Positions 305 through 62,007 are shown, counted from the stretch's first letter. The stretch is 64,000 nucleotides of DNA from a virus (IMGVR_UViG_3300025875_000006:1-64000); one strand, 5' to 3'. The notes: generated by a model from the sequence alone, not told the origin. Numbers and translations are program-made.

Positions 305-350
305 TCCTCCTCTGACTGAGGCTGGTTGACAGAGAGAGGAGGGACAGACC

Positions 351-1502
351 GTGGGCTACGTCCAGGACAACGCCGCGTCGGTCCGGGGCCGCGCGCTCCG
401 GGCCACGACGCTCGGTGCTGACGGTGCACCTGCCGTCGGCACGCTCTGCGACATCTACCTGACCGGCGGCTTCATCTCGTTCCAGTTCACCCCCGAGTAC
501 AGCGAGGGTGACGAGATCGAGGTCAAGAACGCCGCCGGTGAGACGTGCGTCTACTACAAGCTCCCCGACACCCTGAAGAACGTCGGGCTGAGCCTGAGCA
601 TCTGCGACCCGGACCCGGTCCTGACGCAGATGCTGGTGGGCGGCGTCGTGCTGGCCGAGGCGGGCAACTCCGCCTACGCCCCGGCGGGCACCGACCCGGC
701 GGACCTGGTGGCGGTCGGCTACGCCTCCGAGGTCGCTGGCCAGGCGGGCACGCCCAACGGCGTGGCCGTCGAGGTCTGGGCCGACGCCATCGTGAACTCG
801 CGGTCGGCGTCCCGGGCCCCGTTCTGGCACTACCTGTTCCCGTCGGCCCAGTTCCGGCTGGACGGTGACCGGGTGGTCGAGAACGGCAACCTGGCCACCG
901 TCTTCGCCGGGACCGGCGTCGGCAACGAGGCCTTCGGCACGGGTCCGCGCATGGACCTGGCCGGGGTGACCCCGGCTCCGCCGGTGTCGGCCTGGGACTG
1001 GCGCTTCCCCGAGTACACCGAGCGGCCGTACCTGTACGCCCGCACGATGTCCGCGCCCATCGGGCTGAAGGGTCAGTTCGACAACCTGGGGGTGGACATC
1101 GTCGCCATCCTCGCGGGCGACCCGGCCACCTTCCAGCCGGTCAACGCGACCCGTCCGGCCGACCTCGCCGCCCTCCAGGCGGCCGGGGCGCTCGGCAGCA
1201 CGTCGGCGTGGGGCGGCGGCCAGTACGTCACCCTGCGGGACGGCACGGAGGCCTACTGGGACGGGGACAGCTGGACGGCTGGCCGCGCGCCCACGCCGGT
1301 CATCGAGGCGACCGGAGCCACCGCCGGTTCGCCGGGGTCCTACACGCCGCCGGGTGCCTCGGCTCCCGCGACGCTGGCGGACCTGGACGGGGTCACCGCG
1401 AACCCGACCACGGCCTGGACCACCGGCCAGCGCGTCGTGCTGGGCAACAGCACCACGGCGCACTGGGACGGCACGGACTGGGTCGCGGGCTCCGCACCCT
1501 GA
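351..1502 (+). CDS. Major tail protein with duplicated C-terminal Trp-rich module
   Basis: 383 aa, GGAGGG RBS, GDEIEVKNAAGETCVYYK motif, position, followed by a terminator. Confidence 0.75.
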   Translation: MGYVQDNAASVRGRALRATTLGADGAPAVGTLCDIYLTGGFISFQFTPEYSEGDEIEVKNAAGETCVYYKLPDTLKNVGLSLSICDPDPVLTQMLVGGVVLAEAGNSAYAPAGTDPADLVAVGYASEVAGQAGTPNGVAVEVWADAIVNSRSASRAPFWHYLFPSAQFRLDGDRVVENGNLATVFAGTGVGNEAFGTGPRMDLAGVTPAPPVSAWDWRFPEYTERPYLYARTMSAPIGLKGQFDNLGVDIVAILAGDPATFQPVNATRPADLAALQAAGALGSTSAWGGGQYVTLRDGTEAYWDGDSWTAGRAPTPVIEATGATAGSPGSYTPPGASAPATLADLDGVTANPTTAWTTGQRVVLGNSTTAHWDGTDWVAGSAP

Positions 1503-1508
1503 TCGGAG

Positions 1509-1538
1509 CCGGGGTGCCCACTCAACTGGGCACCCCGG
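1509..1538 (+). terminator. Intrinsic terminator hairpin after major tail gene
   Basis: CCGGGGTGCCCA-ctcaac-TGGGCACCCCGG, perfect 12-bp stem. Confidence 0.8.
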
Positions 1539-1585
1539 ACCGGTTGACACAGCACTGACGACGGCGGCGAGGACTGGAGGATCGG

Positions 1586-2323
1586 ATGCTCTGGGTGGAC
1601 CCCACCGATCCCGAGGTCTTCGCCGCCGTCGCTGGTCTGGCGGACGACGAGTCCCCCGAGGACCCCACGCCCGAGGAGCAACTGGCCGTGAGCCGGGCTG
1701 TCGCGGTCGCCAGCGAGGTGCTGTTCCTGGCCACCGGGATGCGCGTGCACCCGGCCGGGGAGAACACCGAGGAGTTCATCGGGCCGAAGAACGTCCGCAG
1801 CTTCACTCTCGCCGTCGGCCCGGTGCGGCAGGTGGTCGAGATCGTCACCGTGGACCCCGCCAGCGGCGCGGAGAGCCCCCTGGAGGGCACGCACCGGCTC
1901 GTGGGCAGCACCGTCTACCGCTGGGGCGGCACGCGGCAGCTCAGCACCGGCACGTCCTCCTTCCGTCGAGCGCTGGGCAGCTCCTGCGCTCCGGGCCAGG
2001 TCATCTACCGGGTGACCTACCGCTACGCCTCCACGATCACGCTGGGCGCGCGCGCGGCCCTGCTGGCCTACGCCCGCGAGCTGTTCCTGGCCACCGAGGA
2101 CCCGAACGCCTGCTCGCTGCCCGAGCGGACCACCAGCGTCACGCGCGAGGGCCTGAGCATGGAGCTGATGACCCCGCAGGACTTCCTGGACAAGGGGCGC
2201 GTCGGCCTGCCCTTCGTGGACACCTGGCTGGCCCAGGCCAACCCGAAGCGCGCTCTGCGCCCGGCCGCCGTCTACACCCCTGACTCCCCGCCCGGGGTCG
2301 GCATCGTTCGTGGGCAGGCATGA
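1586..2323 (+). CDS. Head-to-tail adaptor
   Basis: 245 aa, LPERTTSVTREGLSM and GLPFVDTWL motifs of actinophage adaptors, position. Confidence 0.7.
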   Translation: MLWVDPTDPEVFAAVAGLADDESPEDPTPEEQLAVSRAVAVASEVLFLATGMRVHPAGENTEEFIGPKNVRSFTLAVGPVRQVVEIVTVDPASGAESPLEGTHRLVGSTVYRWGGTRQLSTGTSSFRRALGSSCAPGQVIYRVTYRYASTITLGARAALLAYARELFLATEDPNACSLPERTTSVTREGLSMELMTPQDFLDKGRVGLPFVDTWLAQANPKRALRPAAVYTPDSPPGVGIVRGQA

Positions 2324-2862
2324 CCGTGGAGAGCTTCACCCGGCTGGACCCCTTCGCCGCTGAGCAGGCCGCGCTGGAGCAGCAGGCGCTCGTGGCCGGA
2401 GGCGGCATCCGCACGCTGGCCCAGATGGGCCAGGCCCTGCTGGACATCGCCAACCAGGCGGCAGTCGCCAAGGGCGTCAAGCTGCCCGCCCGGCAGATGT
2501 TCTACCCCGCGCCGATCCCGGCCGACTGCGAGCAGGTGGCGGCGCTGTTCAGCGGCTGGACGCCGACGCCCGCACCCGACGGTCCGGTGGTCTGTTCCAC
2601 GTTCCGCTGGATGGCCGGGTTCTCCCTGATCATCACCCGGTGTGCGCCGAAGGGTGCGGTGCAGGTCAAGTCCACCGCGCCCACGCCCGCCGGGATGATG
2701 GCCAGCGCCCAGCTCGCCAGCGACGACGCCGAGGTGCTGCTGGAGGTCGTGAGCCGCCTGGACGAGGTCGGCGGGGACCTGTCGGTCACCGTGGCCCCGC
2801 CGTCGGGCGGGATGCAGACCGTCGAGCTGAACGTCCAGCTGCTGCCCGGGTCCAGCTTCTGA
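2320..2862 (+). CDS. Virion structural protein (tail terminator-like)
   Basis: 180 aa, ATGA-coupled within the head-tail module. Confidence 0.5.
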   Translation: MTVESFTRLDPFAAEQAALEQQALVAGGGIRTLAQMGQALLDIANQAAVAKGVKLPARQMFYPAPIPADCEQVAALFSGWTPTPAPDGPVVCSTFRWMAGFSLIITRCAPKGAVQVKSTAPTPAGMMASAQLASDDAEVLLEVVSRLDEVGGDLSVTVAPPSGGMQTVELNVQLLPGSSF

Positions 2863-3278
2863 TGGCCCGGGTGGACGTCACCATCGAGCTGGACGACGCG
2901 GCCATCGCCAAGTTCCAGGGCTGGGGCGGCCCGGTGGGCAGCGCGGTCGAGCGGCTGGCCAAGGAGACGGTCTTCCGGCAGCGCGCCTTCCAGAACCAGA
3001 AGACCGGCGCGATGACCGCCGGGACCCACTTCGTCAAGAAGACCTGGTCCAAGGGGATCGGTTTCGACGCGGGCTCGGACGTCCAGTACGCGGCGGCCAA
3101 CGACCAGGGCGCGAAGCCCCACAAGATCGTCGCCAAGAACGCCCCCTACCTGGCCTTCTTCTGGCCGAAGGTCGGGCGCTTCGTGCACTTCAAGAGCGTC
3201 AACCACCCCGGCAACAAGCCCTACAACTGGGCGATGCGCGGGATGGAGGCGGCCCTGCGCTTCTGGGAGCGTGGCTGA
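2862..3278 (+). CDS. Neck/minor virion protein (HK97 gp10-like)
   Basis: TGATG overlap, start MARVDVTIELDD, KSVNHPGNKP motif. Confidence 0.6.
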   Translation: MARVDVTIELDDAAIAKFQGWGGPVGSAVERLAKETVFRQRAFQNQKTGAMTAGTHFVKKTWSKGIGFDAGSDVQYAAANDQGAKPHKIVAKNAPYLAFFWPKVGRFVHFKSVNHPGNKPYNWAMRGMEAALRFWERG

Positions 3279-3311
3279 GAGACTGCGCACCGTCACTGCA
3301 CGACCCCCGAG

Positions 3312-3773
3312 ATGGAGATGCTGATGCCCCGCAAGTCGTTCGGAGTGGCCATCGCGGCCGAGCCGATCTCGTTCGACATCGACGCGCCGATCCGTGGCCC
3401 GCAGAACTTCCCCTGCCGCGACCGGCTGGCCGCCGGGTCGCTGATGCGGTTCGCCGAGCTGTTCTCGTCCATTCAGGACGACGCCACCGGCAGCGCTCAG
3501 GACGCCAAGCAGGCCGCCGCCGCCATCCCGGCCATCCGGGACTTCTTCGACTCCGCCCTCCAGCCGCAGGCCCGGGACCGCTTCTGGGACCTGATCAACA
3601 ACGACGACGAGGGCATCCCGCTGGACACGCTCGTGGAGATCGCGGGCTGGCTCGCGGAGGTGTTCAGCGGGGACCGCCCTACTGGAGCGACCTCGTCCAG
3701 TACGTCGGAGGTGACATCACCCGCCGCCGGTTCTGGGGTTTCGTACTCGCGGCCGGACACGCCGACCCCCTGA
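3312..3773 (+). CDS. Tail assembly chaperone
   Basis: 153 aa, directly upstream of tape measure, DRPT motif at the likely slip site. Confidence 0.8.
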   Translation: MEMLMPRKSFGVAIAAEPISFDIDAPIRGPQNFPCRDRLAAGSLMRFAELFSSIQDDATGSAQDAKQAAAAIPAIRDFFDSALQPQARDRFWDLINNDDEGIPLDTLVEIAGWLAEVFSGDRPTGATSSSTSEVTSPAAGSGVSYSRPDTPTP

Positions 3774-3961
3774 GCCTCCCGGCCTACGGCTTCTTCGACC
3801 TCCTGGAGCACTGGATGGAGGAGCGGGCCATCGAGACGGAGGACCAGGGCAAGGCCCGGGACAAGGTCCGAGCGGAGCTGGCCAGGGCCGCCAAGGTGGC
3901 CCAGATGCTGGAGAGCGACGAGGACATCAGCGACATCCCGCCCCACATGCTCGGCAGATAA
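3677..3961 (+). CDS. Tail assembly chaperone, -1 frameshifted extension
   Basis: The -1 frame from CGC CCT ACT reads PYWSDLVQYVGGDITRRRFWGFVLAAGHADPLSLPAYGFFDLLEHWMEE...LGR* with high-GC codon use and has no start of its own. Confidence 0.7.
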   Translation, partial: PYWSDLVQYVGGDITRRRFWGFVLAAGHADPLSLPAYGFFDLLEHWMEERAIETEDQGKARDKVRAELARAAKVAQMLESDEDISDIPPHMLGR

Positions 3962-3997
3962 CCGCAGGTCAGACCCAGGAAAGGACGGAGGCGGTCA

Positions 3998-6900
3998 GTG
4001 GCAATCGTCGGTACCGCCTTCGTCCGCCTGCGGGTGATCGGCGACAAGCTGAAAGGCGACATCGCCAAGGCGACCGAGAAGGCCGTCCAGGAGTCCGCCC
4101 CTTCGCTCCAGCAGAGCGGGGAGGACGTCGGCGAGCAGATCACCGAGGGCGTCGGACGGCAGCTGTCGGCCGGGGTGGACAGCCAGCTCGCCCGGCTGGC
4201 CGACGACATCGGCGACACCATCGGCCGCCGGATGGCCGAGAACATGGGCCGGTCGCTGCGCCGCCGGGCCGGGGACGCCATCTCGAACGGCATCACCTCG
4301 GCGCGCAGCCGTGTCAACCGGATCGGCGACGCCTTCAAGCCCGCCTTCGACCGGTTCGGCGACGAGTGGGGCAAGGCGACCAGCTTCAAGTTCGGGAAGG
4401 TGCTCCGGCAGGGGCTGATCGGTGCGCTCGCCGGGCTGATCACCGCCCTGCCCTCCGTCCTGGCCTTCGCCGGGGCGATAGCTGGGGCCCTGGTGTCCAC
4501 GGCCATCCCGGCCATCGCAGCGCTCGGGCCGGTGGCGACCGGCGCTGGGATCGCGGCGGTGGCCGCCTTCAGCGCGATCAAGATCAGCTCTGCGCTGGTC
4601 GGCATCGCCATGAAGGCCCCGACGGCCGCCCTGGAGGACTTCCAGGCGCGGGCCGAGAAGTTCAAGATCGCCATCGGCACGCCCATCCAGGCCGGGCTGC
4701 TGTCCGGGTTGAACGCCGCCATGCGGATCAGCGGGCCGATCATCACCGCGCTCCAGCCGCAGTTGGTCGGGCTCGGCCTGGCCGTCGGCGACATCGCGCT
4801 GGAGTTCGCCGCGATGCTGGCCGAGGCGTCCAACATGGACCGGCTCGGGACGATCCTTGCCAACAACAACGCCTTCATCGGCCAGGCCAACATCGGCCTG
4901 ACCGGCTTCGGCCAGGCGCTGCTGGTCCTGCTCTCCCACCTGGGCCCGGTGCTGGACTACCTGGGGACCGGGCTGGCCAGCCTCGGTCAGTGGGCCAGCG
5001 CCAGCATCCTGGCGGCCGAGGCCAGCGGGTCGCTGGACAGCTTCATCCAGCGGATGTTCAACAGCTTCCTGCGGTTCTCTGGCATCGTCGCGGACTTCGG
5101 GGCCGGTCTCTACAACGTCTTCGCCGCCGCGCTGCCGGTCGGCGGGTCGATGCTGCTGACGCTGGAGGACATCGGCCGCCGGTTCCGGGAGTGGACCGGC
5201 GACACCACGAACCAGACCCGGATGACCGACTTCTTCGAGAAGATGCGGACCATCGCGGGCGAGGTCTTCTCGATCCTGGGCGACCTCGGGCGGGTCGGCC
5301 TGGGCGCGCTGGAGAACACCGACCTGTCGGCCGTCACGCGCGGGCTGGACACCCTGCGGGCGCTCGGGCCGCCCATCGCCACGATGTTCCGGGCCATCCA
5401 GGACGCCGCTGGCCCGGCGCTGGCCGACGCCTTCTCCAACTTCGTCATCCTGATCACGAACCTGGCCGAGAGCGGGGTCATCGGCCACCTGGCCGGGGCG
5501 TTCTCGGCCTTCTTCCAGGTGCTCTCCGCGCTGCTGGCCATCCCGGGTGTCGGCCAGCTGTTGGCTCTGGCCGCCGCGCTCGGCGCGATGATGACCACCG
5601 TCCGGCTGCTGATCACCGTTCTGCGCCCGCTGGTGGCCATCATCCGGCTGGTCTGGGCCGTCCTGGGCATCCTGGTCGGGGCCTTCGGTGCGATCCCGGT
5701 GGCCATCGCCGCCGTGGTCGCCGGGCTCATCTACTTCTTCGGCTTCACCGAGACCGGCCGAGCCATCGTCATGGCCGCCGTCGAGGGCATCGTGGCCGCC
5801 TTCTGGTGGTGCCGCGACGCCATCGTGGCCGCCTTCAACTGGGTGGTCGAGAAGCTGGGCGCGGCCTGGTCGTGGATCACCACCACGGCCAGCGGGCTGT
5901 GGTCGGACCTGACCGGCATCTTCTCCGGGATCGGCGACTCCATCGCCGGGGTCTGGAACGACGTCGTGGACCGGGTCCAGTCCGCCCTGGGCACCGTGCG
6001 GGACTTCGTGGTCGGCGTCTGGGACGGCATCTACGCCGGGGTGTCAACCGCGCTCGGAGCGACCCGGGACTTCATCGTCGGTGTCTGGAACGCGGTCTGG
6101 GGCTTCATCCAGCCGATCTTGACCGGCATCCTGAACTTCTACGTGATGATCTTCAACGGCATCCGAACCGCCATCGAGTTCGCGTTGAACGTCATCTACC
6201 AGGTCTTCATCCGGATCTGGCCGTTGCTGGCGTTGCCGGTCCGGGTCTTCTACGGCCTGGTCATCCTGCTCTGGCAGCAGCTGGTCGCCGGGATCACCGG
6301 CCTGGTCAACCTGCTGTCCTCCGCGCTGACCACCGCCTGGAACTTCATCTACGGCGTGATCAGTGGCGTGATGACCGCCGTCCGAGACTTCATCGTCAAC
6401 ACCTGGAACGAGGTCTTCGCCTTCGTCTCCGGCGTGCTGTCAGCCATCGTCGCCTGGGTGTCCGACCGTTGGAACGCGGTCTACGCGGCCGTGTCAACCG
6501 CTCTGGCGGCCGTCTGGGCCGTGGTCACCTCGGTGTGGAACGCCGTCTCTGGCTTCATCGCCGGGGTGGTCGGGGCCATCGTCGGCTGGGTCGCCAACCA
6601 GTGGAACCTCATGGTGTCCTTCGTCTCGAACGGCCTCAACGCCATCTGGGGCGTGGTCACCAGCGTCTGGAACAACGTCTCCAGCTTCATCGGCGGCATC
6701 CTGTCGGCCATTTCCAGCCGGGTCAGCTCGGCCTGGAACGGCCTCACCGGGATCATCTCCGGCGCGCTCAACGCCGTCTGGGTCGCGGTGCAGACCGGCT
6801 GGAACCGCGTCGTGGACTTCGTCCAGGGTGCGCTGGACCGCATCGGCGGGATCATCACGAACATCTGGGGTGGCCTGAAAGATGTCGGGACGGGCATCGT

Positions 6901-7312
6901 GAGCGGCCTGAAGGGGGCGGTCAACGGGATCATCGGCCCGATCAACACGGTCATCGGCGGGATCAACAACGCCATCGACCTGGCGAACAAGCTGCCCGGC
7001 GCGGACATCCCGACCATCCCGACCATCCCGAAGCTGGCCAAGGGCGGCGTGGCCAAGCCGTCAGCCGGTGGCACGCTGGCCATCGTGGCCGAGGCCGGAC
7101 GTTCCGAGCGCATCGAGCCCCTGGACTCCGACGGCCTGTCCAAGCGCGACCACGCCATCTTGAAGGTGATCGCGGGCGGCGGCGGCGGCGGGAAGTCCAA
7201 CGTCAACGTCTACCTGGGCGTCGGCCAGCTGGTGCCGCTGATCGCCGAGGTGGTCGAGGAGCGCGAGGACAGCCTGGCCGACCGAGTGCTCACTGGAACG
7301 AAGGCGGGATAG
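3998..7312 (+). CDS. Tape measure protein
   Basis: 1104 aa, Ala/Gly-rich, periodic Trp repeats, follows the chaperones. Confidence 0.93.
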   Translation: MAIVGTAFVRLRVIGDKLKGDIAKATEKAVQESAPSLQQSGEDVGEQITEGVGRQLSAGVDSQLARLADDIGDTIGRRMAENMGRSLRRRAGDAISNGITSARSRVNRIGDAFKPAFDRFGDEWGKATSFKFGKVLRQGLIGALAGLITALPSVLAFAGAIAGALVSTAIPAIAALGPVATGAGIAAVAAFSAIKISSALVGIAMKAPTAALEDFQARAEKFKIAIGTPIQAGLLSGLNAAMRISGPIITALQPQLVGLGLAVGDIALEFAAMLAEASNMDRLGTILANNNAFIGQANIGLTGFGQALLVLLSHLGPVLDYLGTGLASLGQWASASILAAEASGSLDSFIQRMFNSFLRFSGIVADFGAGLYNVFAAALPVGGSMLLTLEDIGRRFREWTGDTTNQTRMTDFFEKMRTIAGEVFSILGDLGRVGLGALENTDLSAVTRGLDTLRALGPPIATMFRAIQDAAGPALADAFSNFVILITNLAESGVIGHLAGAFSAFFQVLSALLAIPGVGQLLALAAALGAMMTTVRLLITVLRPLVAIIRLVWAVLGILVGAFGAIPVAIAAVVAGLIYFFGFTETGRAIVMAAVEGIVAAFWWCRDAIVAAFNWVVEKLGAAWSWITTTASGLWSDLTGIFSGIGDSIAGVWNDVVDRVQSALGTVRDFVVGVWDGIYAGVSTALGATRDFIVGVWNAVWGFIQPILTGILNFYVMIFNGIRTAIEFALNVIYQVFIRIWPLLALPVRVFYGLVILLWQQLVAGITGLVNLLSSALTTAWNFIYGVISGVMTAVRDFIVNTWNEVFAFVSGVLSAIVAWVSDRWNAVYAAVSTALAAVWAVVTSVWNAVSGFIAGVVGAIVGWVANQWNLMVSFVSNGLNAIWGVVTSVWNNVSSFIGGILSAISSRVSSAWNGLTGIISGALNAVWVAVQTGWNRVVDFVQGALDRIGGIITNIWGGLKDVGTGIVSGLKGAVNGIIGPINTVIGGINNAIDLANKLPGADIPTIPTIPKLAKGGVAKPSAGGTLAIVAEAGRSERIEPLDSDGLSKRDHAILKVIAGGGGGGKSNVNVYLGVGQLVPLIAEVVEEREDSLADRVLTGTKAG

Positions 7313-7316
7313 TCGA

Positions 7317-9982: not shown

Positions 9983-9986
9983 GCCC

Positions 9987-10736: not shown

Positions 10737-10774
10737 CACCCTGATCACCGACTGACAGACGAAGGAGACCACCC

Positions 10775-11599: not shown

Positions 11600-11619
11600 G
11601 GTGACGGCGGCCCTGGTCT

Positions 11620-11646
11620 GTTGAGTCCGGCGGCTATTCTCAGACC
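11620..11646 (+). promoter_or_regulatory. Leaderless promoter, proximal-motif type
   Basis: GTTGAGT-N8-TATTCT-N6-ATG. Confidence 0.55.
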
Positions 11647-14060: not shown

Positions 14061-14097
14061 GGGACAAGTATGCACCGCGCTTCTCAACTCTGTCAAC
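14061..14097 (-). promoter_or_regulatory. Tandem-motif leaderless promoter
   Basis: TTGACA gag TTGAGA-N9-CATACT-N6-ATG. Confidence 0.8.
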
Positions 14098-14520: not shown

Positions 14521-14555
14521 GGGACCAGTATGCGCAGCCTTGTCAACAGTGTCAA

Positions 14556-14795
14556 CTACCCCAGGCAGGTGCGCGTGCCGCACATCGGGCAGGGGTCACC
14601 GATGGTGTGCAGCTCCAGCGCGGCCAGGCAGATGCGGCACAGCTCGTCCACGTGGGGTAGGTCGGTGCGGATGATCAGGTCCGCGCTGTCCTGGCCGCAC
14701 CAGGTCAGCTTGCGGCTGTCGCAGGCGATGTGAACGACGTCGTCCTCCCCGCCGTCGGTGTCAACCGGGGCGGGGAGGACGTCGGTGGAGGTCAT
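14556..14795 (-). CDS. Small Zn-finger-like protein
   Basis: 79 aa with CxxC pairs. Confidence 0.55.
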   Translation of the reverse strand: MTSTDVLPAPVDTDGGEDDVVHIACDSRKLTWCGQDSADLIIRTDLPHVDELCRICLAALELHTIGDPCPMCGTRTCLG

Positions 14796-17315: not shown

Positions 17316-17337
17316 GCCCCCGAGTATGTCACCTTTG

Positions 17338-18201
17338 TCAACCAGACGGGTTGAGCACGCGCAGGATGGCCTTGTCCTCGTGCGGCAAGGACGGCCGGTA
17401 CCAGCCGCCGGAGTCGCACTCCACCGGGTCGCCCGCCAGGTGCTTGGGGTGCTTGGGGTCCATGACGTGCTCGTCGTGCGCGGTGCACCAGAAGCGCTGG
17501 CTGGGCAGCAGCATCAGCACCGGCGGCGCGGTGTCGTCCAGCAGGTCGTCGGGGTCGGGCAGCTTGGCGTCCGGCGTCGTCGTGCCGAAGGTGATGCCGC
17601 CCTTGTTGACGGTGAAGTGCTCCATCGCCTTCTTGACGGCCTCGTAGGCCGTCGTCTTGCCGCCCTGCTTGGCCTGGGGCTGCATCGTCCACGTCACGCC
17701 GTGCTCGTCCTCGGTCATCTGGACCGTGCCGATGGGGCCGTCAGCGGTCCCGTCGAAGCCGTAGAGCGTCTTGACCAGGTCCGGCGACACGTTCTTCAGC
17801 TCGAAGCCGATGCTGGCGGCGTCCAGCGATGGCTTCAGCGGCTGGACGATCTGGTCCAGGATCAGCTGCTCGTCCAGCTGGGCCTGCACCTGCTGGGTGT
17901 AGCCGAAGGTCTTGATCACCGGCTGGGCCTTGCCCAGCACGTCGTACTGCTGGAGCTGGCTCAGCGAGACGTGCACGTGCTCGATGTGCGGGTCCGGGCC
18001 CTTGTACGGGCTGACGTGCTCCAGCGGGAGGGGAAAGGGCAGCGGCGGCATCTTCAGCGCGCTGGCGGCCTTGGCCAGGTTCTCGCCCAGCTGGTCGGCG
18101 GCCTCGGTGATCGGGACGAAGGCCAGGGAGATGCCCTTCAGCGTCTGGGCCATCTTCTCGGTCACCACCGTGATGTTGACCTGGGCGTTCTCGTCAGCCA
18201 C
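17338..18201 (-). CDS. Hypothetical protein
   Basis: GGAGGA RBS, GTG start, strong coding pattern. Confidence 0.65.
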   Translation of the reverse strand: MADENAQVNITVVTEKMAQTLKGISLAFVPITEAADQLGENLAKAASALKMPPLPFPLPLEHVSPYKGPDPHIEHVHVSLSQLQQYDVLGKAQPVIKTFGYTQQVQAQLDEQLILDQIVQPLKPSLDAASIGFELKNVSPDLVKTLYGFDGTADGPIGTVQMTEDEHGVTWTMQPQAKQGGKTTAYEAVKKAMEHFTVNKGGITFGTTTPDAKLPDPDDLLDDTAPPVLMLLPSQRFWCTAHDEHVMDPKHPKHLAGDPVECDSGGWYRPSLPHEDKAILRVLNPSG

Positions 18202-18936: not shown

Positions 18937-18972
18937 GTTGACACTGTTGAGAAAGCCTGCCAGACTGCTCCC
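18937..18972 (+). promoter_or_regulatory. Tandem-motif leaderless promoter, divergent from the tRNA-like RNA promoter
   Basis: GTTGACA ct GTTGAGA-N8-CAGACT-N6-ATG. Confidence 0.75.
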
Positions 18973-21231: not shown

Positions 21232-21474
21232 GCCAGAAGTATGCGCCACAGTGTCAACAGTGTCAACACGCGACACGCCAGTCAGCTGGCGAAGTTCCGG
21301 TGCACTCCCCAGACGGTGGCGACCACCAGCACGGCGATCAGGGCCAGCGCGGTCAGCAGGACCGGTACCCCGGCCTGGTGGCCCAGGATGATCCCGGTCC
21401 AGTACGGGGCGATGCTCGCGGACAGCACGTCGTCGGCCCAGACCTGCGCGGGTGACCGCTGGTCGTCCACGCGG

Positions 21475-23474: not shown

Positions 23475-23552
23475 GGCACAAGTATGAAGCCCCGTGTCAA
23501 CAGTGTCAACACGGGGCCCCATCAGCGTGTCCCGGACACCCGGGCGGGTGAA

Positions 23553-24422
23553 TCAGCCGCGCTGGTTGTGGCGGTTCTTCCGGCCGCGACGGCGGCCCTT
23601 GCGCCCGCCACCGTTGCCGGTCGGCTGCTGGCCCGACCGCAGGGACGCGGCCCGGTCGCGGTCGTGCGCCCGACGGTCGGCCTCGACCTGCGCCCAGTCC
23701 CGGGGACCCGGCAGCGTGTCGGAGAACCCGATGGCGGCCAGCCCGCCCTCGTCCCGGGCGTCCAGCGCGCGGGCGTTGTCCTCGGCCTCGTCCAGGTGCA
23801 CCTGCTGCTCCTCCGGCGTCAGGCTGTTCCACCAGGCGGCGTCGTCCTCGATGACCGATCCCAGCTCGATCAGCTCGTCGGCCAGCGACGACATCGGCTC
23901 CGGGTCGCGGGCCGGGTCGCCACCCTGCCAGCTGCGGTTGTCCCAGTCGTAGTCCCCGGCGCGCAGCGCGCCCCGGCTCTCGCTGCCGGTGTAGGGCAGC
24001 GAGGTCTGACCGGTGCCCGGCCGGGTGTCGCGCTTCGGCGGCGTCCAGGGCTTGACCACGGACTTCAGGCGCGGGGTCCGGGAGTAGGGCGCGTAGGGCT
24101 GGAGAGCGGCCATCGCGGTCCAGAAGCCGTAGTAGGCCGACCGGCGGTTGCCGTGCTCGGTGGGGGAGGACTTGGCCAGCGCGACGTCCTTGAAGTGCCC
24201 CTTGATCGTGTCGTCCATGATCATCTGGGTCATGCGCTCGGCCAGCTGGACCTTCGTGATCTTGGCCCGGAAGTAGTAGTCCGCGCCCGGCTTCTCGATC
24301 ACCTCGACGCCGGGGAAGTTGCGCTCCAGGTCTTCCCGGACGCGGGCCCGGAGGTGGACGACGGTGTCGTCCTTGCGGTCAACGACGAAGGTGAAGAAGC
24401 CGTGCTCGGTGACGATCCACAT
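23553..24422 (-). CDS. Hypothetical phage protein
   Basis: MWIVTEHGFF..LRAR..DY.FRA pattern; promoter at 24470-24489. Confidence 0.7.
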   Translation of the reverse strand: MWIVTEHGFFTFVVDRKDDTVVHLRARVREDLERNFPGVEVIEKPGADYYFRAKITKVQLAERMTQMIMDDTIKGHFKDVALAKSSPTEHGNRRSAYYGFWTAMAALQPYAPYSRTPRLKSVVKPWTPPKRDTRPGTGQTSLPYTGSESRGALRAGDYDWDNRSWQGGDPARDPEPMSSLADELIELGSVIEDDAAWWNSLTPEEQQVHLDEAEDNARALDARDEGGLAAIGFSDTLPGPRDWAQVEADRRAHDRDRAASLRSGQQPTGNGGGRKGRRRGRKNRHNQRG

Positions 24423-24534: not shown

Positions 24535-25167
24535 CTACTCGCCCAGCAGGGCAGCCACGGCGCGGTCCCGGATGTCCTGGAGGGCGCTGACGCGGGCCTC
24601 GGCGTCCTCGGCCAGGGCCTGCCACTCGGCGACCTCGGCGCGCAGCCGGTAGACCTCGGCCAGCACGGCTTCGGGGTCCTCCAGCTCACGGCGGTGTGTC
24701 GCGCGGTGGCGGTCCAGGTTGCCCGGCGAGAAGGGCTGGAGGCAGACCGGGCAGTTGACCCGGACGTGCACCCGGACGTGATGGACGCTCAGGGCCTGCT
24801 TTGTGGCGAAGGGCCGCAGGCACTCCGGGCACAGCTGCGGGACCTCGACGGGTACGGCGACCGTGTCAACCGGGTCTGCTGCGGGCTCCGGCTCGGGAGC
24901 CGCTTCCGTCTGAATCGGCTCGGTCTCGGATTCGGCGACGGCCTGCTCGCGCAGCCAGCGGCGGTAGACGGCCACCTGGTTGGTCATGTGCCGTCGGCTG
25001 CCCGCCTTCGGCGTGATGGAGCACGTCGTGACGCCATCGGGGGCGAACATGAACACGTGGCCGCTGGCCCCCAGTCGGCCGGTCCAGCCGCTGGCCTCCA
25101 TCTGGCGTACCAGGGCCACACCGTCCTTGTGGAAGCTGCTGGGCAGCTTCACCGCCTCGGCGGTCAT
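24535..25167 (-). CDS. HicA-like N-terminus, C2H2 Zn fingers, coiled coil
   Basis: GWTGRLGASGHVFMFAPDG; CPEC..H..H and CPVC..H..H. Confidence 0.55.
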   Translation of the reverse strand: MTAEAVKLPSSFHKDGVALVRQMEASGWTGRLGASGHVFMFAPDGVTTCSITPKAGSRRHMTNQVAVYRRWLREQAVAESETEPIQTEAAPEPEPAADPVDTVAVPVEVPQLCPECLRPFATKQALSVHHVRVHVRVNCPVCLQPFSPGNLDRHRATHRRELEDPEAVLAEVYRLRAEVAEWQALAEDAEARVSALQDIRDRAVAALLGE

Positions 25168-25349: not shown

Positions 25350-25393
25350 GGGAGAAGTATGACACAGCTATCTCAACAGTGTCAACACGGGGC

Positions 25394-28522: not shown

Positions 28523-28557
28523 GGGGCCAGTATGGGGCACTTGGTCAACAGTGTCAA

Positions 28558-30645
28558 CTAGGCCGGGTCCTCGGCGGGCTCCGCCGGGGTGACCTTGGCC
28601 GCCGCCTTCTTCTTCGCCTTGGCCGGAGCCCCGGTGGCGAACAGCGCCTGGAGCTTCTTCTGGTCCTGGACCAGCTCCTCCAGCTTCATCGCGTTCTCGC
28701 CGAACCGGTCGATCTGGCGCTCCTCCACCGTGCCGGTGGTGACGTAGTCGTAGACCTTGACCGCCTTGTGCTTCTCCGAGCCGATGCGGTGCACCCGGTC
28801 CAGCCCCTGCTTCCAGAGGATCGGGGACCAGCTGCGCTCCAGCCGCAGCAGCGAGCTGGCCGCCGTCAGCGTCACCCCGGTGCCCCCGGCCGCGTAGGTG
28901 TAGAGCATCCAGCGCTTCTTGCCCTGCTGGAAGTCGGTGATGGCCAGGTCGCACTGCTGGTCGGTCCGGTCCCCGGCGACGCTCACGATCTCGGTGGGGT
29001 CCAGCCCGAGCGTGTCAACCAGGGCCTGCTCGACCAGCCGCAAGAACCGGCGGCTGACGAAGCTCATGGCCACCTGCTCGCCCTCGAACTCCCCGGCCCG
29101 GATGTCGTCCACCAGGGAGTCGATCTTGCAGCTGGGCATCCGCAGCAGCATCTTCACCGGGACGTCGTCGGCGTCCGGGCCCGGGTTGAAGGCCTCGGGG
29201 TCGTCGGGGTAGCCCGTGGCGCTGGCCAGCATGGACAGCCGCCCGGTGGCCACCATGCTGTTGGCCGCGACGATCTTGCCCTCCTGGACCATCAGGACCA
29301 TCTCGTCGCGCATCTGGCTGTAGGCGGCGGCCTGCTCCCGGCCCATCTCGCACTCGCGGATGAACTCCCCGCCGGTCAGCAGCGGCGGCAGGTCCAGCAC
29401 CTCGGCCTTCAGACGGCGGCGCGACATCGCGCTGAAGACCTGCTGGAACTCCTCGCGCCGGGTCGGCTTGAAGCCGAACACCTGCGGGAACCCGGCCATG
29501 CTGTAGCCGCGCTCCAGGTAGTAGTCCACGTAGGTGGTCTTCACCGGCCAGGCGTCGGCGTCGGCGGTGTGCAGCACCGTCCAGCTGGCCTCGGAGTCCG
29601 AGCTGATGGGCGTGCCGGTCAGCCCCCAGCGCAGGGCGTCCGGCGCGCTCCGGATGAGCCCCCAGAGCGCCTGGGTGGTCTGGGAGAGGTTGTTCAGCAC
29701 GCGGTGCAGCTCGTCGGCCACGATCAGGCTGAAGTCGATGGCGTTCAGCTCGCGCTCGTGGCGCTGGCACTTCGCCTCGGTGACGTGCTCCTCGTCGGAC
29801 TGCGGCGGGCCGCCGTGGGCCTCGCACTTCTTCAGCGCGTGCCCGGGGGCGGCGGCGTACCGGGTGTGGCTGCGCAGGGCCTCCCAGCCGATGATGCCGA
29901 TGTCGGCCTCGCCGGTGGCCAGCCGCTCGATGGCCGCACGCCGCTGGGTGGACGTGCCCCGGATGATCTCCACCCGCGCCCAGGGGATGAACGTGGCCAG
30001 GTCGTCGGCCCAGGCGGTCTTCAGCGTCTTCTTCGGCGCGATGACCAGGATCGGCCGGTGGGGCGGCTCGTGGCCGGTGCCCTCCGGGTCGGGGTCCGTG
30101 CTCGGGTCCGGGACCAGGTCCAGCTTCAGGATGCCGTTGAGCACGGCGGCCGTCTTTCCGGTGCCGGTCTCGTTCAGCAGCAGCCGCCCGCGCGTGGGCA
30201 CGATCCCACCGCCGTAGGACAGCCACTCGCCGTCGTCCTCCTGGTGGGGGTAGAAGACGTCGTCCTCGGCCTTGACGGCCGTGGGGTCCACGCGGGCCGC
30301 CAGCTCGCGCATCCGCTCCCAGTGCCCGGCCTGCTCGTTGACCCACGCCTTCAGCGCCGGGTGCGGCAGCAGCTTCAGGCCGGTCTCCACCGACATCGTC
30401 TTCAGGGCCAGCACGGCGGGCCAGGCCTTCGGCAGCGTCCAGACCTGGTCGGCCTTCGAGTACAGCGCGCCGGGGATCAGCTGGAGGCGCGGCATGAACG
30501 TGGCGGGCACGTAGACGGCCATGCGCCCGGCGTACTTGCCCACGACGACGTCGTAGGGGTAGATGCCCGGCTTGGCCCCGGCCAGCTTCACCGTGTCAAC
30601 CGGCGGGCTGAGCTGGGCGGGGGCGTCGGTCAGGGTGGCGGTCAT
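28558..30645 (-). CDS. SNF2-like (SF2) DNA helicase
   Basis: NETGTGKT (I), VADELH (II), LTGTP (III), GGTGVTL and DRVHRIG (V/VI). Confidence 0.9.
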   Translation of the reverse strand: MTATLTDAPAQLSPPVDTVKLAGAKPGIYPYDVVVGKYAGRMAVYVPATFMPRLQLIPGALYSKADQVWTLPKAWPAVLALKTMSVETGLKLLPHPALKAWVNEQAGHWERMRELAARVDPTAVKAEDDVFYPHQEDDGEWLSYGGGIVPTRGRLLLNETGTGKTAAVLNGILKLDLVPDPSTDPDPEGTGHEPPHRPILVIAPKKTLKTAWADDLATFIPWARVEIIRGTSTQRRAAIERLATGEADIGIIGWEALRSHTRYAAAPGHALKKCEAHGGPPQSDEEHVTEAKCQRHERELNAIDFSLIVADELHRVLNNLSQTTQALWGLIRSAPDALRWGLTGTPISSDSEASWTVLHTADADAWPVKTTYVDYYLERGYSMAGFPQVFGFKPTRREEFQQVFSAMSRRRLKAEVLDLPPLLTGGEFIRECEMGREQAAAYSQMRDEMVLMVQEGKIVAANSMVATGRLSMLASATGYPDDPEAFNPGPDADDVPVKMLLRMPSCKIDSLVDDIRAGEFEGEQVAMSFVSRRFLRLVEQALVDTLGLDPTEIVSVAGDRTDQQCDLAITDFQQGKKRWMLYTYAAGGTGVTLTAASSLLRLERSWSPILWKQGLDRVHRIGSEKHKAVKVYDYVTTGTVEERQIDRFGENAMKLEELVQDQKKLQALFATGAPAKAKKKAAAKVTPAEPAEDPA

Positions 30646-42441: not shown

Positions 42442-42486
42442 GGCGTGTTTGTTGACACTGTTGAGAAGACCTGTCATAGTCATCCC

Positions 42487-49889: not shown

Positions 49890-49910
49890 CACGCCTGACA
49901 TAGTGGGACC
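49885..49910 (+). promoter_or_regulatory. Promoter of the putative ncRNA
   Basis: TTGACA-N7-CATAGT-N6, +1 = G49911. Confidence 0.65.
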
Positions 49911-50110: not shown

Positions 50111-50166
50111 GTCCAGGGTCAGCGTGTCCCGTTGACATTGTTGACACGCGGGCGCATACTCGCCCC

Positions 50167-53091: not shown

Positions 53092-53474
53092 GCGGGATGG
53101 GTGCGGCCGACGACAACACGGTCTGGATGGACCTGGACGTGCTGGCGGCCAGCTACGAGCGGGTCAACGGTGTGCGGCCGAACCAGCTCACCCTGGGCCG
53201 GGTGGTGGCCGAGGAGCTGGAGCCTGAGGAGAGCCGCCGAGCACGGCCGGACTGGCCTGCCCACCCGCCGCACCAGCACTGGGAGAGTCCGGTGTCGGGC
53301 ATCTGGCGCGTCCGGGTCGGACCGGTGCCGGGGGGCTGGTGGCACCGGTTCAAGGTCCACCGCGCGTGCCGGAAGTCCGGCGGCCACTACTGGCACCCGG
53401 CCGACGCCATGATCGAGTGGTTCTGCTGCAACTGCGGGGCTGACCGAGACGGGATGCCGAGGGACGGCCGGTGA
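53088..53474 (+). CDS. Hypothetical protein
   Basis: GTGA-coupled, C-terminal Cys/His motif. Confidence 0.5.
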   Translation: MSGMGAADDNTVWMDLDVLAASYERVNGVRPNQLTLGRVVAEELEPEESRRARPDWPAHPPHQHWESPVSGIWRVRVGPVPGGWWHRFKVHRACRKSGGHYWHPADAMIEWFCCNCGADRDGMPRDGR

Positions 53475-53875
53475 ACCTGACGCAGCCCTGCAAGCCGTGG
53501 CAGGGCGCGACGAACAAGCAGGGCTACGGCCGGGTCTACGTCCCGGGCCAAGGTACGCAGCTGGTGCACCGGGTGGCCTGGGCGGAGGAGCATGGTCCGA
53601 TACCGGCGGGCGTCGTCATCCGGCACCGGTGTGACAACCCGCCCTGCACGCAGCTGGAGCACCTGACCGATGGCACGCAGGCGGACAACGTCCAGGACGC
53701 CGTGGAGCGTGCACGGATGACTGGACCACGTACTGGCGAGCAGTGCGGTCGGGGGCACACCTACACCGCCCAGGACTGGCAGACCAGCCGTCGAGGTAGC
53801 CGGGTCCGAGACTGCAAGAAGTGCCGGGCGACGACCAGGAAGCTCCGACGAGCAGCGAAGGTGGAAGCAGCGTGA
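53471..53875 (+). CDS. HNH homing endonuclease
   Basis: GYGRV..HRVAW..RHRCDNPPC..HLTDGTQADN. Confidence 0.9.
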   Translation: MNLTQPCKPWQGATNKQGYGRVYVPGQGTQLVHRVAWAEEHGPIPAGVVIRHRCDNPPCTQLEHLTDGTQADNVQDAVERARMTGPRTGEQCGRGHTYTAQDWQTSRRGSRVRDCKKCRATTRKLRRAAKVEAA

Positions 53876-55991: not shown

Positions 55992-56040
55992 GGGGCAAGT
56001 ATGCCGTACTGTGTCAACAGTGTCAACGCAACGCGCTGGG

Positions 56041-61012: not shown

Positions 61013-61014
61013 GG

Positions 61015-61476
61015 TCACCATCCCCTCTCGGTTCGGGCAGTTGCTGCTGCCTCGGCTGCTGCGTCCGGGGTGTCGAACACCCCGAGGTGCTGGGAGCCCA
61101 TGAAGGCCCGCCAGCGTTTGCCGCTGGGCATCACGCCCGGCGGCAGGTCGTGCTTGCGGGGCCTGCGCCCCACGTTGCGGTTGTTCTGCTGCTGCGTGCC
61201 GCCGCGCAGGTTCGCGCGGCGGTTGTCCAGCCGGTCTCGGTTGACGTGGTCGGTGTGGACCTTGTCGCCGTGCTGGAGGCCCAAGATCAGGCGGTGCATC
61301 AGCACGGCACGACCGCCGACGTAGCTGTGCGCGTAGCCAGCGGAGTGCAGGCGCCAGGTCTGAGTGCTCACCAGTGCGGCGTCTTCGTCGTCCACCAGGG
61401 CGTGCTGACCGGTGGGCTCGTCCTGCCCCCACCGGCCGTTGCCGACGTGCCGGTACAGCGGAATCTGCGTCGTCAC
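61015..61476 (-). CDS. HNH endonuclease with AP2-like C-terminus
   Basis: MHRLIL..TDHVNRDRLDNRRANLR; GV..KRWRA..HLGVFDT. Confidence 0.88.
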   Translation of the reverse strand: MTTQIPLYRHVGNGRWGQDEPTGQHALVDDEDAALVSTQTWRLHSAGYAHSYVGGRAVLMHRLILGLQHGDKVHTDHVNRDRLDNRRANLRGGTQQQNNRNVGRRPRKHDLPPGVMPSGKRWRAFMGSQHLGVFDTPDAAAEAAATARTERGW

Positions 61477-61481
61477 AGAAA

Positions 61482-61672
61482 CTACTGTAGGGCTACTTCG
61501 TCACCTCGGACAGGACGGGCCAGCCGTGCTGGTCGCGGACCACGAACGCGCGCCGGTCTGCCCAGTCCAGGCAGGCGTCGGCCGAGCCCGTGAACGTCGT
61601 CCACTCGTCGGACATCCGGTCCTTGCCCCGGACCGTGAAGGTCTGCTCGATGGTGCTGGTGCTCTGCGTCAT
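61482..61672 (-). CDS. Small hypothetical (MTQ start)
   Basis: MTQSTSTIEQ; TATGCT-N6-ATG. Confidence 0.6.
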
Positions 61673-61728
61673 GGGACGAGCATAGTTGAGACTGTTGAGA
61701 TACGCAAGACATACTTCGGTGTGTCAAC

Positions 61729-62007
61729 ATGGATGGCATGAGCATGAAGCAGGGGGACGCCGCCATCGCCGCCGACTGGGCCGCGAAGGGCTGGCTGAAC
61801 TACGTCCTGAACGTCACCCGCGAGCTGCCCGCCACCCACCCGGTGGACGACCGGATGCAGCAGGCCCTGGCCGGGGAGGAGCTGCCGCAGTGGCTGGAGG
61901 ACGCCGTCCGCGTCCGGCTGGTCGCGCTGCGCGGCGAAGCGCTGGTCGCCCAGGTGCACGCCCGAGCGGGCTGGCAGCCGGGTACCGATCTGGTTGACAC
62001 GCACTGA
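61729..62007 (+). CDS. Hypothetical protein
   Basis: 92 aa; promoter GTTGAGA ct GTTGAGA-N9-CATACT upstream. Confidence 0.55.
   Translation: MDGMSMKQGDAAIAADWAAKGWLNYVLNVTRELPATHPVDDRMQQALAGEELPQWLEDAVRVRLVALRGEALVAQVHARAGWQPGTDLVDTH

Follow-up and report, generated by a model that had tools for sequence, protein, structure and literature searches.

Dispersed site arrays in phage and bacterial genomes

The best-described arrays of one short site spread over a phage genome are the repressor-stoperator systems of cluster A mycobacteriophages (L5, with its repressor gp71), of Rhodococcus cluster CA phages, and of Streptomyces phage R4. In these phages, dozens of copies of an asymmetric site, presumably read by a monomer, occur at about one per 1.5-2 kb. 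The site contains a TTGACA-like core, the −35 hexamer of the phage early promoter. The L5 site is GGTGGMTGTCAAG. The cluster CA consensus is TGTCTATTGTCAAG (PMC13313380). Stoperators are 13-14 bp long, lie in promoters and short intergenic spaces, point one way relative to transcription, lose function when inverted, and belong to temperate phages with an identifiable immunity repressor (PMC9283540). The repressor of the Streptomyces phage phiC31 binds many dispersed conserved inverted repeats (CIRs), some inside ORFs, which are 17-bp palindromes, and this phage is also temperate. In bacterial chromosomes, the DNA uptake sequences of Neisseria (DUS) and Pasteurellaceae (USS) are non-palindromic words found about once per kb, mostly inside ORFs in several frames, with a relative excess in non-coding DNA and no orientation bias; they act as self-tags read by a cell-surface uptake receptor, mismatched forms are also enriched, and evenness of spacing is reported as weak (PMC1939737). 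Chi sites and other oriented words (KOPS/SRS) are short, exact, over-represented genome-wide, and read by a DNA-processing machine, can distinguish self from foreign DNA, and are read on one strand and orientation-skewed.

Here, we analyzed the heptamer GTTGACA/TGTCAAC in a 64,000-nucleotide stretch (the window), which is the first 64 kb of an 89,613-bp record of an apparently lytic, uncultured phage of a high-GC actinobacterium. The original prediction, that this word is written into coding sequence about once per kb throughout the genome, was confirmed. Its interpretation, a protein-loading code for transcription timing or roadblocking, or for coating, organizing or protecting phage DNA, was only partly supported. 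Compared with stoperators, the array has a similar density and more than 20 dispersed copies, and likewise contains the −35 hexamer. However, the informative length of its site is 8-10 bp (flanks beyond this are uninformative), the word is exact, 81% of the free-standing copies lie inside genes in either orientation, they are evenly spaced, and the main promoter copies lack the flank that the free-standing sites require. Compared with the phiC31 CIRs, the word is short and asymmetric. It shares with uptake sequences the density, the majority of copies in ORFs, the relative excess in non-coding DNA, and the absence of orientation bias, but near-cognates are not enriched and spacing is strongly regular, and in this phage genome no competence or uptake machinery is expected or was seen. 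In contrast to Chi-type words, strand labels are random and evenness exists only when the strands are pooled. The array is unlike any described phage site array.

Two classes of GTTGACA copies

There are 67 exact copies of the heptamer in the window, against 3.7 ± 1.9 (maximum 9) in dinucleotide-preserving shuffles, and 84 copies in the whole record. GTTGACA is the most over-represented 7-mer, and CGGTTGACAC is the most over-represented 10-mer, with 33 copies against 0.2 expected. Disappearance of the enrichment under a codon-preserving null had been named beforehand as grounds for rejecting the observation. A synonymous-codon shuffle that keeps every protein and the codon usage of each gene gave 4.4 genic copies (maximum 13) against 50 observed, and a codon-order shuffle gave 1.9. 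The claim that the word forces rare codons was also confirmed: 21 of 52 GTT codons and 12 of 30 TCA codons (40% of both) lie in the motif. The sites use four of the five stop-free frames, VD(T) in 21 cases, xLT in 8, VST in 12 and xVN in 9, on both strands. Thus, selection acts on the DNA word itself.

Not all copies are free-standing sites. Twenty of the 67 window copies, about a third, are parts of promoters. The heptamer is the extended −35 element of about 17 host-type (σ70-like) promoters of leaderless mRNAs, TTGACA-N17-CATACT, and a second copy or near-copy usually sits 9 bp downstream, in the spacer. A search for TTGACA-17/18-CATACT found six matches against 0.4 expected in the 12.5-29 kb region, which confirms the tandem sites as promoters; the −35 hexamer, spacer and −10 hexamer together are present for the tandem or distal copies only. 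A tandem-heptamer leaderless promoter at 14527..14556 (minus strand) reads GTTGACA-CT-GTTGACA-N8-CATACT, followed by ATGACGCAGA (TTGACA-17-CATACT, 10 of 12 matches). Other tandem-heptamer leaderless promoters lie at 21238..21267 (minus), 23481..23510 (minus), 50131..50160 (plus) and 55998..56027 (minus). Promoters with a degenerate proximal copy are found on the minus strand at 14067..14097 (GTTGACA-GA-GTTGAGA ... CATACT), 25356..25386 (GTTGAGA) and 28529..28558 (GTTGACC). On the plus strand, the promoter at 18937..18966 reads GTTGACA-CT-GTTGAGA ... CAGACT, then a leaderless ATGACGCAGA, and the leaderless promoter at 42451..42480 reads GTTGACA-CT-GTTGAGA ... CATAGT. A second register, in which one heptamer lies only 7 nt from CATACT, is seen in the promoter-like site at 17316..17342 (minus), where the heptamer carries the flank TG-GTTGACA of the free-standing sites; others of this register start at 12824 (plus), 24483 (minus), 49885 (plus) and 56604 (minus). 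Two second-register promoters (17336 and 49885) carry the full single-site flank.

The other 47 window copies (62 in the whole genome) are single sites with the consensus YG-GTTGACA-C. The first base and strand of the heptamer are 325+, 1543+, 4312−, 6042−, 6492−, 7709−, 8351−, 9092+, 12172−, 14759−, 15435−, 16610+, 18317−, 19428+, 21537−, 22065+, 22559−, 24864−, 26244−, 27017−, 27958−, 29013−, 30594−, 31342−, 33092−, 35379+, 36558−, 37450−, 37942−, 39812+, 42010+, 43297−, 45117+, 45758+, 48753−, 50286+, 50593−, 51465+, 52577+, 53980+, 54436−, 56161+, 57448−, 60077−, 60241−, 61722− and 61993+. G precedes the heptamer in 57 of 62 singles, the base before that is C or T in 57 of 62, and C follows in 49 of 62. 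Sites 37942 and 61722 lack the preceding G and may be promoter −35 elements instead. Of the 62 singles, 50 are genic, spread uniformly along genes of every class, and 12 are intergenic. No conserved −10-like positions were found downstream of genic singles, and 21 of 50 point against the gene. The two classes are sharply separate: G precedes the heptamer in 0 of 16 tandem-promoter copies in this genome (G0) and 0 of 21 in its relative G001, against 57 of 62 and 64 of 66 singles, respectively. Every TTGACA in both genomes is GTTGACA. Recognition appears strict, since there are 59 exact GGTTGACA against 1.3 expected, while all one-mismatch variants are at background except the promoter forms T/A-GTTGACA.

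Spacing, orientation and conservation of the single sites

The single sites are far more evenly spaced than expected by chance. In G0, the mean gap is 1445-1469 bp (minimum 164, maximum 4233), with a CV of 0.56-0.57 against 0.97 for random placement (P < 0.0002; 0.53-0.57 across the analyses made). Even spacing of the pooled sites was also seen in three of four relatives tested, with CVs of 0.48-0.50 in G001, 0.59 in G002 and 0.58 in G004, each against about 0.97 (P ≤ 0.002); minimum gaps were 147-198 bp. In the fourth relative, G003, the word is denser (102 copies) but not significantly even (CV 0.85). The complete or near-complete relatives G001, G002 and G003 contain 66, 79 and 102 copies of GGTTGACA, respectively. 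The largest site-free gap in G0 (61993-66226) contains a low-GC3, apparently recently acquired gene at 63171..64000 (plus).

Strand is irrelevant to spacing: per-strand CVs equal those obtained after shuffling strand labels, and runs tests were not significant. Sites with the same orientation as the gene and those opposed to it number 29 to 21 in G0 and 24 to 27 in G001. The orientation bias that had been predicted, sense in the early arms and antisense in the virion operon, is real in this genome (early genes, 21 sense to 6 antisense; late genes, 6 to 13; Fisher p = 0.0025). In early genes, however, it equals the ratio of coding opportunities (104 to 40), and it is nearly absent in G001. The orientation rule, on which the transcription-timing or roadblocking reading had leaned, is mostly a by-product of which peptides can encode the word, although a mild antisense excess in late genes (against opportunities of 76 to 50) is not accounted for. 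The predicted adjacency to terminators is not specific: 3 of 7 perfect-stem hairpins lying outside genes have a copy nearby, partly promoter copies, which short intergenic spaces would give anyway.

The word is the top 7- or 8-mer in relatives of 43-77% PolA identity (and remains the top k-mer down to 44% DNA polymerase identity). Of G0 sites, 17 of 36 are at orthologous positions in G001 (chance 10%) and 6 of 17 in G003, and the rest have turned over; shifts of a few codons are seen in PDDEXK, AAA_24 and PrimPol. One lineage has the variant CCG-AATGACA and others have none, which argues for a lineage-specific binder. In 61 sampled Actinomycetes genomes (seven of them, G019, G027, G036, G042, G044, G048 and G055, unpublished) and 4 others, the word is at background, with 0-13 CGGTTGACAC per genome, like the reversed control, against 33 in the phage.

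Candidate readers and possible roles of the word

While the two uses of the heptamer, as a promoter element and as ca. 62 free-standing sites, are established by the sequence analysis, what follows on binding and function is inferred from sequence alone. In our preferred but tentative reading (probability about 0.45), the free-standing sites are exact recognition sites on duplex DNA for one sequence-specific protein. This protein would probably be phage-encoded, with a specificity probably derived from, or competing with, recognition of the −35 heptamer, and would prefer YGGTTGACAC to TGTTGACAC. It would dock about every 1.4 kb and act on its DNA neighborhood within roughly 1 kb, whichever way the site points, so that selection would keep at least one site per stretch, drop redundant neighbors, and replace lost sites nearby. 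The likeliest use would be to mark, coat or organize the phage chromosome, and so set it apart from host DNA, where the word is 100 times or more rarer per base. The even spacing irrespective of strand, which the original prediction did not include, fits a coating, organizing, protecting or coverage-type role better than anything else. Exact, non-degenerate words are, however, more typical of enzymes (restriction-modification, nickases) or of Chi- and DUS-type signals than of transcription factor sites. A more far-reaching version, which we consider doubtful, is a phage “self” tag of a kind not described before, kept at regular intervals of about 1.3 kb through all genes of a deep clade of lytic actinophages. 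It would be read by a dedicated phage protein so that some phage machinery (nuclease sparing, coating or compaction, or recruitment of replication or packaging factors) acts on phage and not on host DNA, the functional counterpart, for a virus, of Chi or DNA uptake sequences.

The nearest alternative, though an unlikely one, is stoperator-type control, in which a phage regulator of the −35 heptamer also binds the dispersed sites and blocks elongating RNA polymerase, silencing or timing all operons, for example by shutting off early genes or enforcing dependence on antitermination. The shared −35 heptamer, a density like that of cluster A phages, and the two second-register promoters with the full single-site flank are consistent with this, and tandem heptamers in promoters could bind two copies cooperatively. 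Length, genic location, lack of a tie between orientation and transcription, and avoidance by the main promoter copies of the G that singles require speak against it, and roadblocks do not need even spacing. Pfam and PHROGs searches of about 85 proteins gave no integrase, ParA/B, sigma, repressor or similar family, though most early proteins have no family at all and a novel regulator cannot be excluded; no prophage copy was found, the clade’s marker protein having no copy in about 185,000 species genomes. Less likely still, the word could be the recognition site of a nickase (as in T5- or phiKMV-type nicked genomes) or of a base-modifying enzyme. All-or-none recognition is typical of such enzymes, the genome carries many HNH and endonuclease VII genes, and the word contains a GTYRAC core. 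Yet these genes vary between relatives while the word does not, no methyltransferase or base-modification gene was seen in this genome, known nick arrays are strand-specific, and a need for a modification target does not explain accumulation or even spacing.

Strand-specific signals, such as priming sites for the phage primase or Chi-like signals that stop a helicase-nuclease entering from DNA ends, appear improbable. Spacing of 1-1.5 kb is like Okazaki fragment length, a replication-recombination module (PolA, PrimPol, DUF3987 helicase, PD-(D/E)XK nuclease, AAA_24) lies in the window, and most sites are on the minus strand left of about 38 kb and on the plus strand for about 16 kb to the right. 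But per-strand spacing is no more regular than after random labeling, the 54-73 kb region contradicts a two-replichore pattern, G001 shows no regional strand pattern, and G003, with 102 sites, has no PrimPol or DUF3987 homologue. Equally improbable are landing pads for host RNA polymerase holoenzyme, perfect −35 elements without a −10 that would bind sigma region 4 and concentrate polymerase on phage DNA. The core is identical to the phage’s own −35 heptamer, every TTGACA is part of it, and the word is rare in host-like genomes. However, real promoters avoid the preceding G, and the Y before it, that singles require, so something other than sigma seems to read the flanks; one lineage uses GAATGACA, a poor −35, and a short-range sliding benefit is speculative. 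Least likely is a DUS/USS-like word without cellular function, spread by molecular drive, for example by preferential rescue or recombination of fragments carrying it during co-infection. The similarities to uptake sequences listed above agree with this, but a drive still needs a reader, the evenness seen here is strong while uptake sequences are described as not especially evenly spaced, and no such process is known for phages.

If the sites are what they appear to be, a whole clade of uncultured 80-90 kb actinophages pays a measurable coding cost (rare codons, and about half of all V-D-T-type tripeptides in early genes) to keep one exact word every 1-1.5 kb. That would imply a genome-wide DNA-protein system absent from any family database, and its reader would define a new way for a lytic phage to organize, protect or regulate its chromosome, and provide a compact orthogonal DNA tag and binder pair for high-GC hosts. 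For annotation, the rule that G before the heptamer means a single site and no G a promoter, together with the leaderless promoter consensus, allows transcription maps of these phages to be drawn from sequence alone.

No protein that binds the word was identified among the phage proteins searched. The candidates originally put forward, 43299-43715 (MerR/HTH_17), 38222-38866 (partly WhiB-like) and 45621-46502, are not conserved across the genomes that carry the word. The gene at 23553..24422 (minus) encodes a 289-aa protein of no known family and was the only one found in every relative carrying the word that was examined, as well as in the one relative with a variant word. It is a candidate by co-occurrence only: no fold match and no recognizable DNA-binding fold were found, and it may simply be a marker of the clade. 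The neighboring gene at 24535..25167 (minus) encodes a 210-aa protein with a HicA-like N-domain, two C2H2-type zinc fingers and a coiled coil. It is a weaker candidate binder. The zinc fingers were not found in L013, L015 or L018. The gene pair is conserved in G001 and G003.

Genome organization and over-representation of the heptamer

The 89,613-bp IMG/VR record, of which the window is the first 64 kb, is rated 100% complete and has 70% G+C. A gene map was built from third-position GC, and it contains 133 genes and 93% coding sequence. A late operon on the plus strand runs from about 64 kb through the record's end to 12.5 kb, and holds a T4-type large terminase, a portal, a 2988-aa protein (record positions 72377-81343), a zeta-toxin/AAA_33-domain protein (record positions 82260-83747), and tail genes; the 2988-aa and zeta-toxin/AAA_33-domain proteins lie inside the virion operon, between the portal and the tail genes. 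A leftward early arm spans 12.8-37.9 kb, a rightward arm spans 38-55 kb, and a mixed region spans 55-63 kb. The replication module comprises PolA, an SNF2 helicase, a PD-(D/E)XK nuclease, AAA_24, PrimPol, and a DUF3987 helicase. Scattered among the replication genes are at least seven free-standing homing-endonuclease-type genes, of the endonuclease VII (19872-20261, 27754-28158, and 40177-40716) and HNH_3 (31432-31827, 34893-35357, 53471-53875, and 61015-61476) types. Most of them are absent at the same places in relatives, and they thus appear mobile.

No isolate phage is close. Megablast of 8 kb against 50,697 isolate phages returned no match, and the nearest isolates share only about 35% amino-acid identity in the helicase, which is at most 37% identical to those of Actinomycetia, Microbacterium, and Gordonia phages. 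A single-protein scan of IMG/VR found nothing, and an alignment was needed. No integrase, partition, or repressor family was found in about 85 proteins scanned, and a profile of the clade's marker protein, a 289-aa protein described below, matched no relative in one genome each of about 185,000 species, revealing neither a prophage form nor a host clue. The phage therefore looks lytic. A scan of the same collection for the 16-base tandem promoter core gave only scattered matches in unrelated phyla, which by a rough estimate is about the number expected by chance for a 16-mer in 596 Gb, and also gave no host clue.

The original prediction of a GTTGACA/TGTCAAC motif repeated about once per kb and written into coding sequence held. 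The heptamer occurs exactly 67 times in the window, against 3.7 +/- 1.9 in dinucleotide shuffles, and 84 times in the genome. It is the top 7-mer, and CGGTTGACAC is the top 10-mer, with 33 copies against 0.2 expected. Fifty copies are genic. A codon-preserving null had been set beforehand as a test of the enrichment; shuffling synonymous codons within each gene gave 4.4 copies (maximum 13), while shuffling codon order gave 1.9. The genic copies use four frames: sense GTT-GAC-A (21), sense xxG-TTG-ACA (8), antisense xTG-TCA-AC (12), and antisense xxT-GTC-AAC (9), while the sense frame that would create a TGA stop is never used. In the genome, 40% of all GTT codons and 40% of all TCA codons lie in the word, and in early genes 16 of 31 V-D-[T/S/R/I...] tripeptides are encoded by it. 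Selection is therefore on the DNA and not on the protein or the mRNA.

Promoter-associated and free-standing copies

Inspection of the intergenic copies showed that about 22 copies (20 in the window) belong to promoters. The typical form is [not G]-GTTGACA-CT-GTTGA(C/G)A-N8/9-CATACT-N6-ATGACGCAGA, with the upstream TTGACA lying 17-18 bp from CATACT. An independent consensus scan found six such promoters in 12.5-29 kb, against 0.4 expected. The promoters at 14067-14556, 18937-18966, 21238-21267, 23481-23510, 25356-25386, 28529-28558, 42451-42480, 50131-50160, and 55998-56027 form a family of near-identical sigma-70-type elements, whose transcripts are predicted to start at or next to a conserved ATGACGCAGA. 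The spacer holds the second GTTGA(C/G)A 9 bp after the −35 heptamer; in G003, a distant relative, the same layout recurs with a 10-bp offset. The ATG sits 6-7 nt after the −10 element, and the mRNAs are thus inferred to be leaderless; the proteins all begin M-T-Q. In a second register (12824, 17336, 24483, 49885, and 56604), one heptamer lies only 7-8 nt from the −10 element.

The other 62 copies (47 in the window) are singles with the consensus YG-GTTGACA-C. G precedes the heptamer in 57 of 62, and C or T precedes that in 57 of 62. By contrast, G precedes none of the 16 tandem-promoter copies. In the relative G001, the corresponding figures are 64 of 66 singles and 0 of 21 tandem-promoter copies. 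Every TTGACA hexamer in both genomes is preceded by G (84 and 95 GTTGACA, and no A-, C-, or T-TTGACA), while another relative, G002, has 111 against 1. Singles show no conserved −10-like positions downstream. Recognition appears all-or-none by sequence: 59 exact GGTTGACA were found against 1.3 expected, while every one-mismatch variant except the promoter forms is at or below background. The idea that degenerate sites fill the large gaps was rejected on this basis.

The singles are much more evenly spaced than random points. The mean gap is 1445-1469 bp (minimum 164, maximum 4233), with a CV of 0.56-0.57 against 0.97, and none of 5000 simulations was as low. We tested GGTTGACA sites in four relatives, for which a random CV is about 0.97, and the result was repeated in three of them: G001 (complete, 70% PolA identity, 66 sites, CV 0.48, P < 0.0002), G002 (94% complete, 65% identity, 79 sites, CV 0.59, P < 0.0003), and G004 (a 39-kb fragment, 45% identity, 28 sites, CV 0.58, P = 0.002). 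In G003 (complete, 45% identity), the 102 sites are denser and the CV of 0.85 is not significant. The regularity belongs to the pooled sites. Per-strand CVs (about 0.8) equal those obtained by shuffling strand labels over the same positions, and the order of strands along the genome passes a runs test in all three whole genomes.

Relative to genes, the split is 29 same to 21 anti in the genome studied here, 24 to 27 in G001, and 63 to 35 in G003. The regional orientation bias claimed in the original prediction exists in this genome (early genes 21 to 6, late genes 6 to 13; p = 0.0025), but in early genes it matches the ratio of peptides able to encode each orientation (104 to 40), and only a mild antisense excess in late genes remains. 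A two-replichore pattern around 38 kb fits 0-54 kb but fails at 54-73 kb, and is absent in G001. The largest gap (61993-66226) contains a gene (63171-64000 in the window, continuing to about 64090 of the record) with clearly lower third-position GC than the rest of the genome, which was missed by our GC3-based gene finder. The gene looks like a recent acquisition, and its location is as expected if newly acquired DNA has not yet gained a site.

The word in related phages and in bacterial genomes

PolA homologues at 43-77% identity are common in soil and other metagenomes. In ca. 22-kb loci around them (designated L), GTTGACA or GGTTGACA is again the top k-mer, with 17-32 copies against about 1 expected. 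This holds for L009-L013, L015-L018, and L021, including genomes of only 62-64% G+C. Three loci at 43-44% identity, from two distinct contigs (L014 and L020, which are the same contig, and L019), lack it. The word differs among lineages (GGTTGACA, GAATGACA, or none). L022 (IMGVR_UViG_3300026067_000016, positions 1-14289; 48% identity) has no GTTGACA at all but has 16 AATGACA copies, some of which are part of a start-associated GGAG-AATGAC-ATG sequence, while eight are intragenic CCG-AATGACA singles; this looks like a switch of the word. On a PolA tree, the lineages with the word occupy at least three deep branches, in an unresolved radiation with the variant lineage and the lineages without it.

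In a more distant group of PolA phages of about 71% GC (L052, L057, and L059), the word (G)CGTTTACAC(G), one letter away from the core studied here, is the top 8-mer. It occurs both as singles and inside a longer promoter-like repeat, and the 10 copies in L059 are evenly spaced (CV 0.37), possibly representing the same phenomenon in another phage group. A different, operator- or terminator-like repeat was seen in another distant PolA phage, L049 (IMGVR_UViG_2873306619_000001), which has eleven copies of a perfect 22-bp palindrome, CACCTCCCAACGTTGGGAGGTG, in 19 kb.

Sites persist and also turn over. Of 36 genic sites in the genome studied here, 17 have a site within 45 nt of the orthologous position in G001 (15 within 8 nt; chance 10%), and 16 of the 17 keep their orientation. 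In G003, the figure is 6 of 17 (chance 14%). In several genes the site moves by a few codons between relatives (PDDEXK codons 137/142/147/151, AAA_24 264/270/277, and PrimPol 270/272), which is what selection for a site somewhere in the vicinity would give.

In four actinobacterial genomes reached by chance matches, YGGTTGACA occurs 19-56 times per 1.2-8.4 Mb, in the same range as the reversed control word. In 61 genomes sampled across the Actinomycetes, CGGTTGACAC occurs 0-13 times per genome, again like the control, against 33 in the 89.6-kb phage; seven of the 61 are unpublished genomes (our designations G019, G027, G036, G042, G044, G048, and G055), and this claim rests partly on them. The word is therefore not a chromosomal architecture word in the genomes sampled, and it discriminates phage from bacterial DNA about 100-fold or more per base.

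Candidate readers and interpretation

To look for a protein that might read the word, we compared gene content. One non-structural gene of unknown function, encoding a 289-aa protein (23553-24422, minus strand), was found in every relative carrying the word that could be examined, and in the variant L022 record. It is absent from four records without the word, including two that are 87-95% complete. Its family of 39 metagenomic proteins has no name, Pfam, or PHROG; it has a very conserved 115-aa N-domain, an acidic helix, and a basic RKNRHNQ tail. A PDB profile search gave only E >= 0.05. AlphaFold models (pLDDT 72 for the whole protein and 87.5, i.e., confident, for the N-domain) match no solved fold: Foldseek returned no hit at E <= 0.001 (E >= 0.16), and the best VIA-align Z was 5.0 on the helices and 3.8 on the N-domain. 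Recurrent weak LAGLIDADG and Pur-alpha rows are not trustworthy. The ESM Atlas shows only unnamed phage clusters. The upstream neighbour (24535-25167, minus strand) encodes an unusual phage protein, a HicA-like N-domain fused to two classical C2H2-type zinc fingers and a coiled coil, from a family with 13 metagenomic members. The gene pair is kept in G001 and G003, but the fingers were not found in L013, L015, or L018. Co-occurrence within one clade is weak evidence, and both proteins are therefore named only as first candidates.

Otherwise, Pfam and PHROGs gave no DNA-binding regulator apart from a weak MerR/HTH_17 hit (43299-43715), a partly WhiB-like protein (38198-38866), and small zinc-finger proteins, none of which is conserved across the genomes that carry the word. 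PrimPol and DUF3987 are both absent from G003, so the word is not the priming site of this pair. DnaA boxes were likewise rejected, since by eye only 6 of 9 positions match TTGTCCACA and the CACA end is missing, and a specific link to terminators was rejected as well.

The original prediction's reading of the motif as a protein-loading code, for transcription timing or roadblocking or for coating, organizing, or protecting phage DNA, is partly supported. The results show that an exact word is selected at the DNA level, that its copies fall into two classes separated by the flanking G, that coverage is even irrespective of strand, that the word is deeply conserved with local turnover, and that it is rare in bacterial genomes. 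They suggest, as an inference from sequence alone, that the word is read on the duplex and that one sequence-specific protein docks at each single site and acts on the surrounding kilobase or so (probability ca. 0.45). In this view, the specificity of the protein overlaps the promoters' −35 heptamer but needs the YG flank, so that binding would be specific for CGGTTGACACGG as against TGTTGACACTG and would depend on the preceding G. The coverage pattern, the absence of any link to gene boundaries or direction, and the 100-fold contrast with cellular DNA favour marking, coating, or organizing of the phage chromosome, a part of the reading that remains doubtful on its own, over stoperator-like roadblocking, which as a separate explanation is less likely still. 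Enzyme sites, strand-specific signals, landing pads for polymerase, and pure drive are retained as rivals.

In number, density, asymmetry, and −35 core, the array works most like a stoperator array. However, of six defining stoperator features considered, it lacks three, namely the site length, the intergenic location, and the orientation, and for a fourth, no identifiable repressor or temperate lifestyle was found among about 85 proteins scanned, although most early proteins have no family at all and a novel regulator is not excluded; we therefore do not classify it as one. In its statistics it looks most like DNA uptake sequences. Literature searches found no paper describing this word or an evenly spaced intragenic word in phages. 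Two promoter-like sites of the second register, at 17316-17342 and 49885-49910, carry the full single-site flank (TG-GTTGACA) only 7 nt from the −10 element; if a protein reads the singles, these promoters would be its direct targets.
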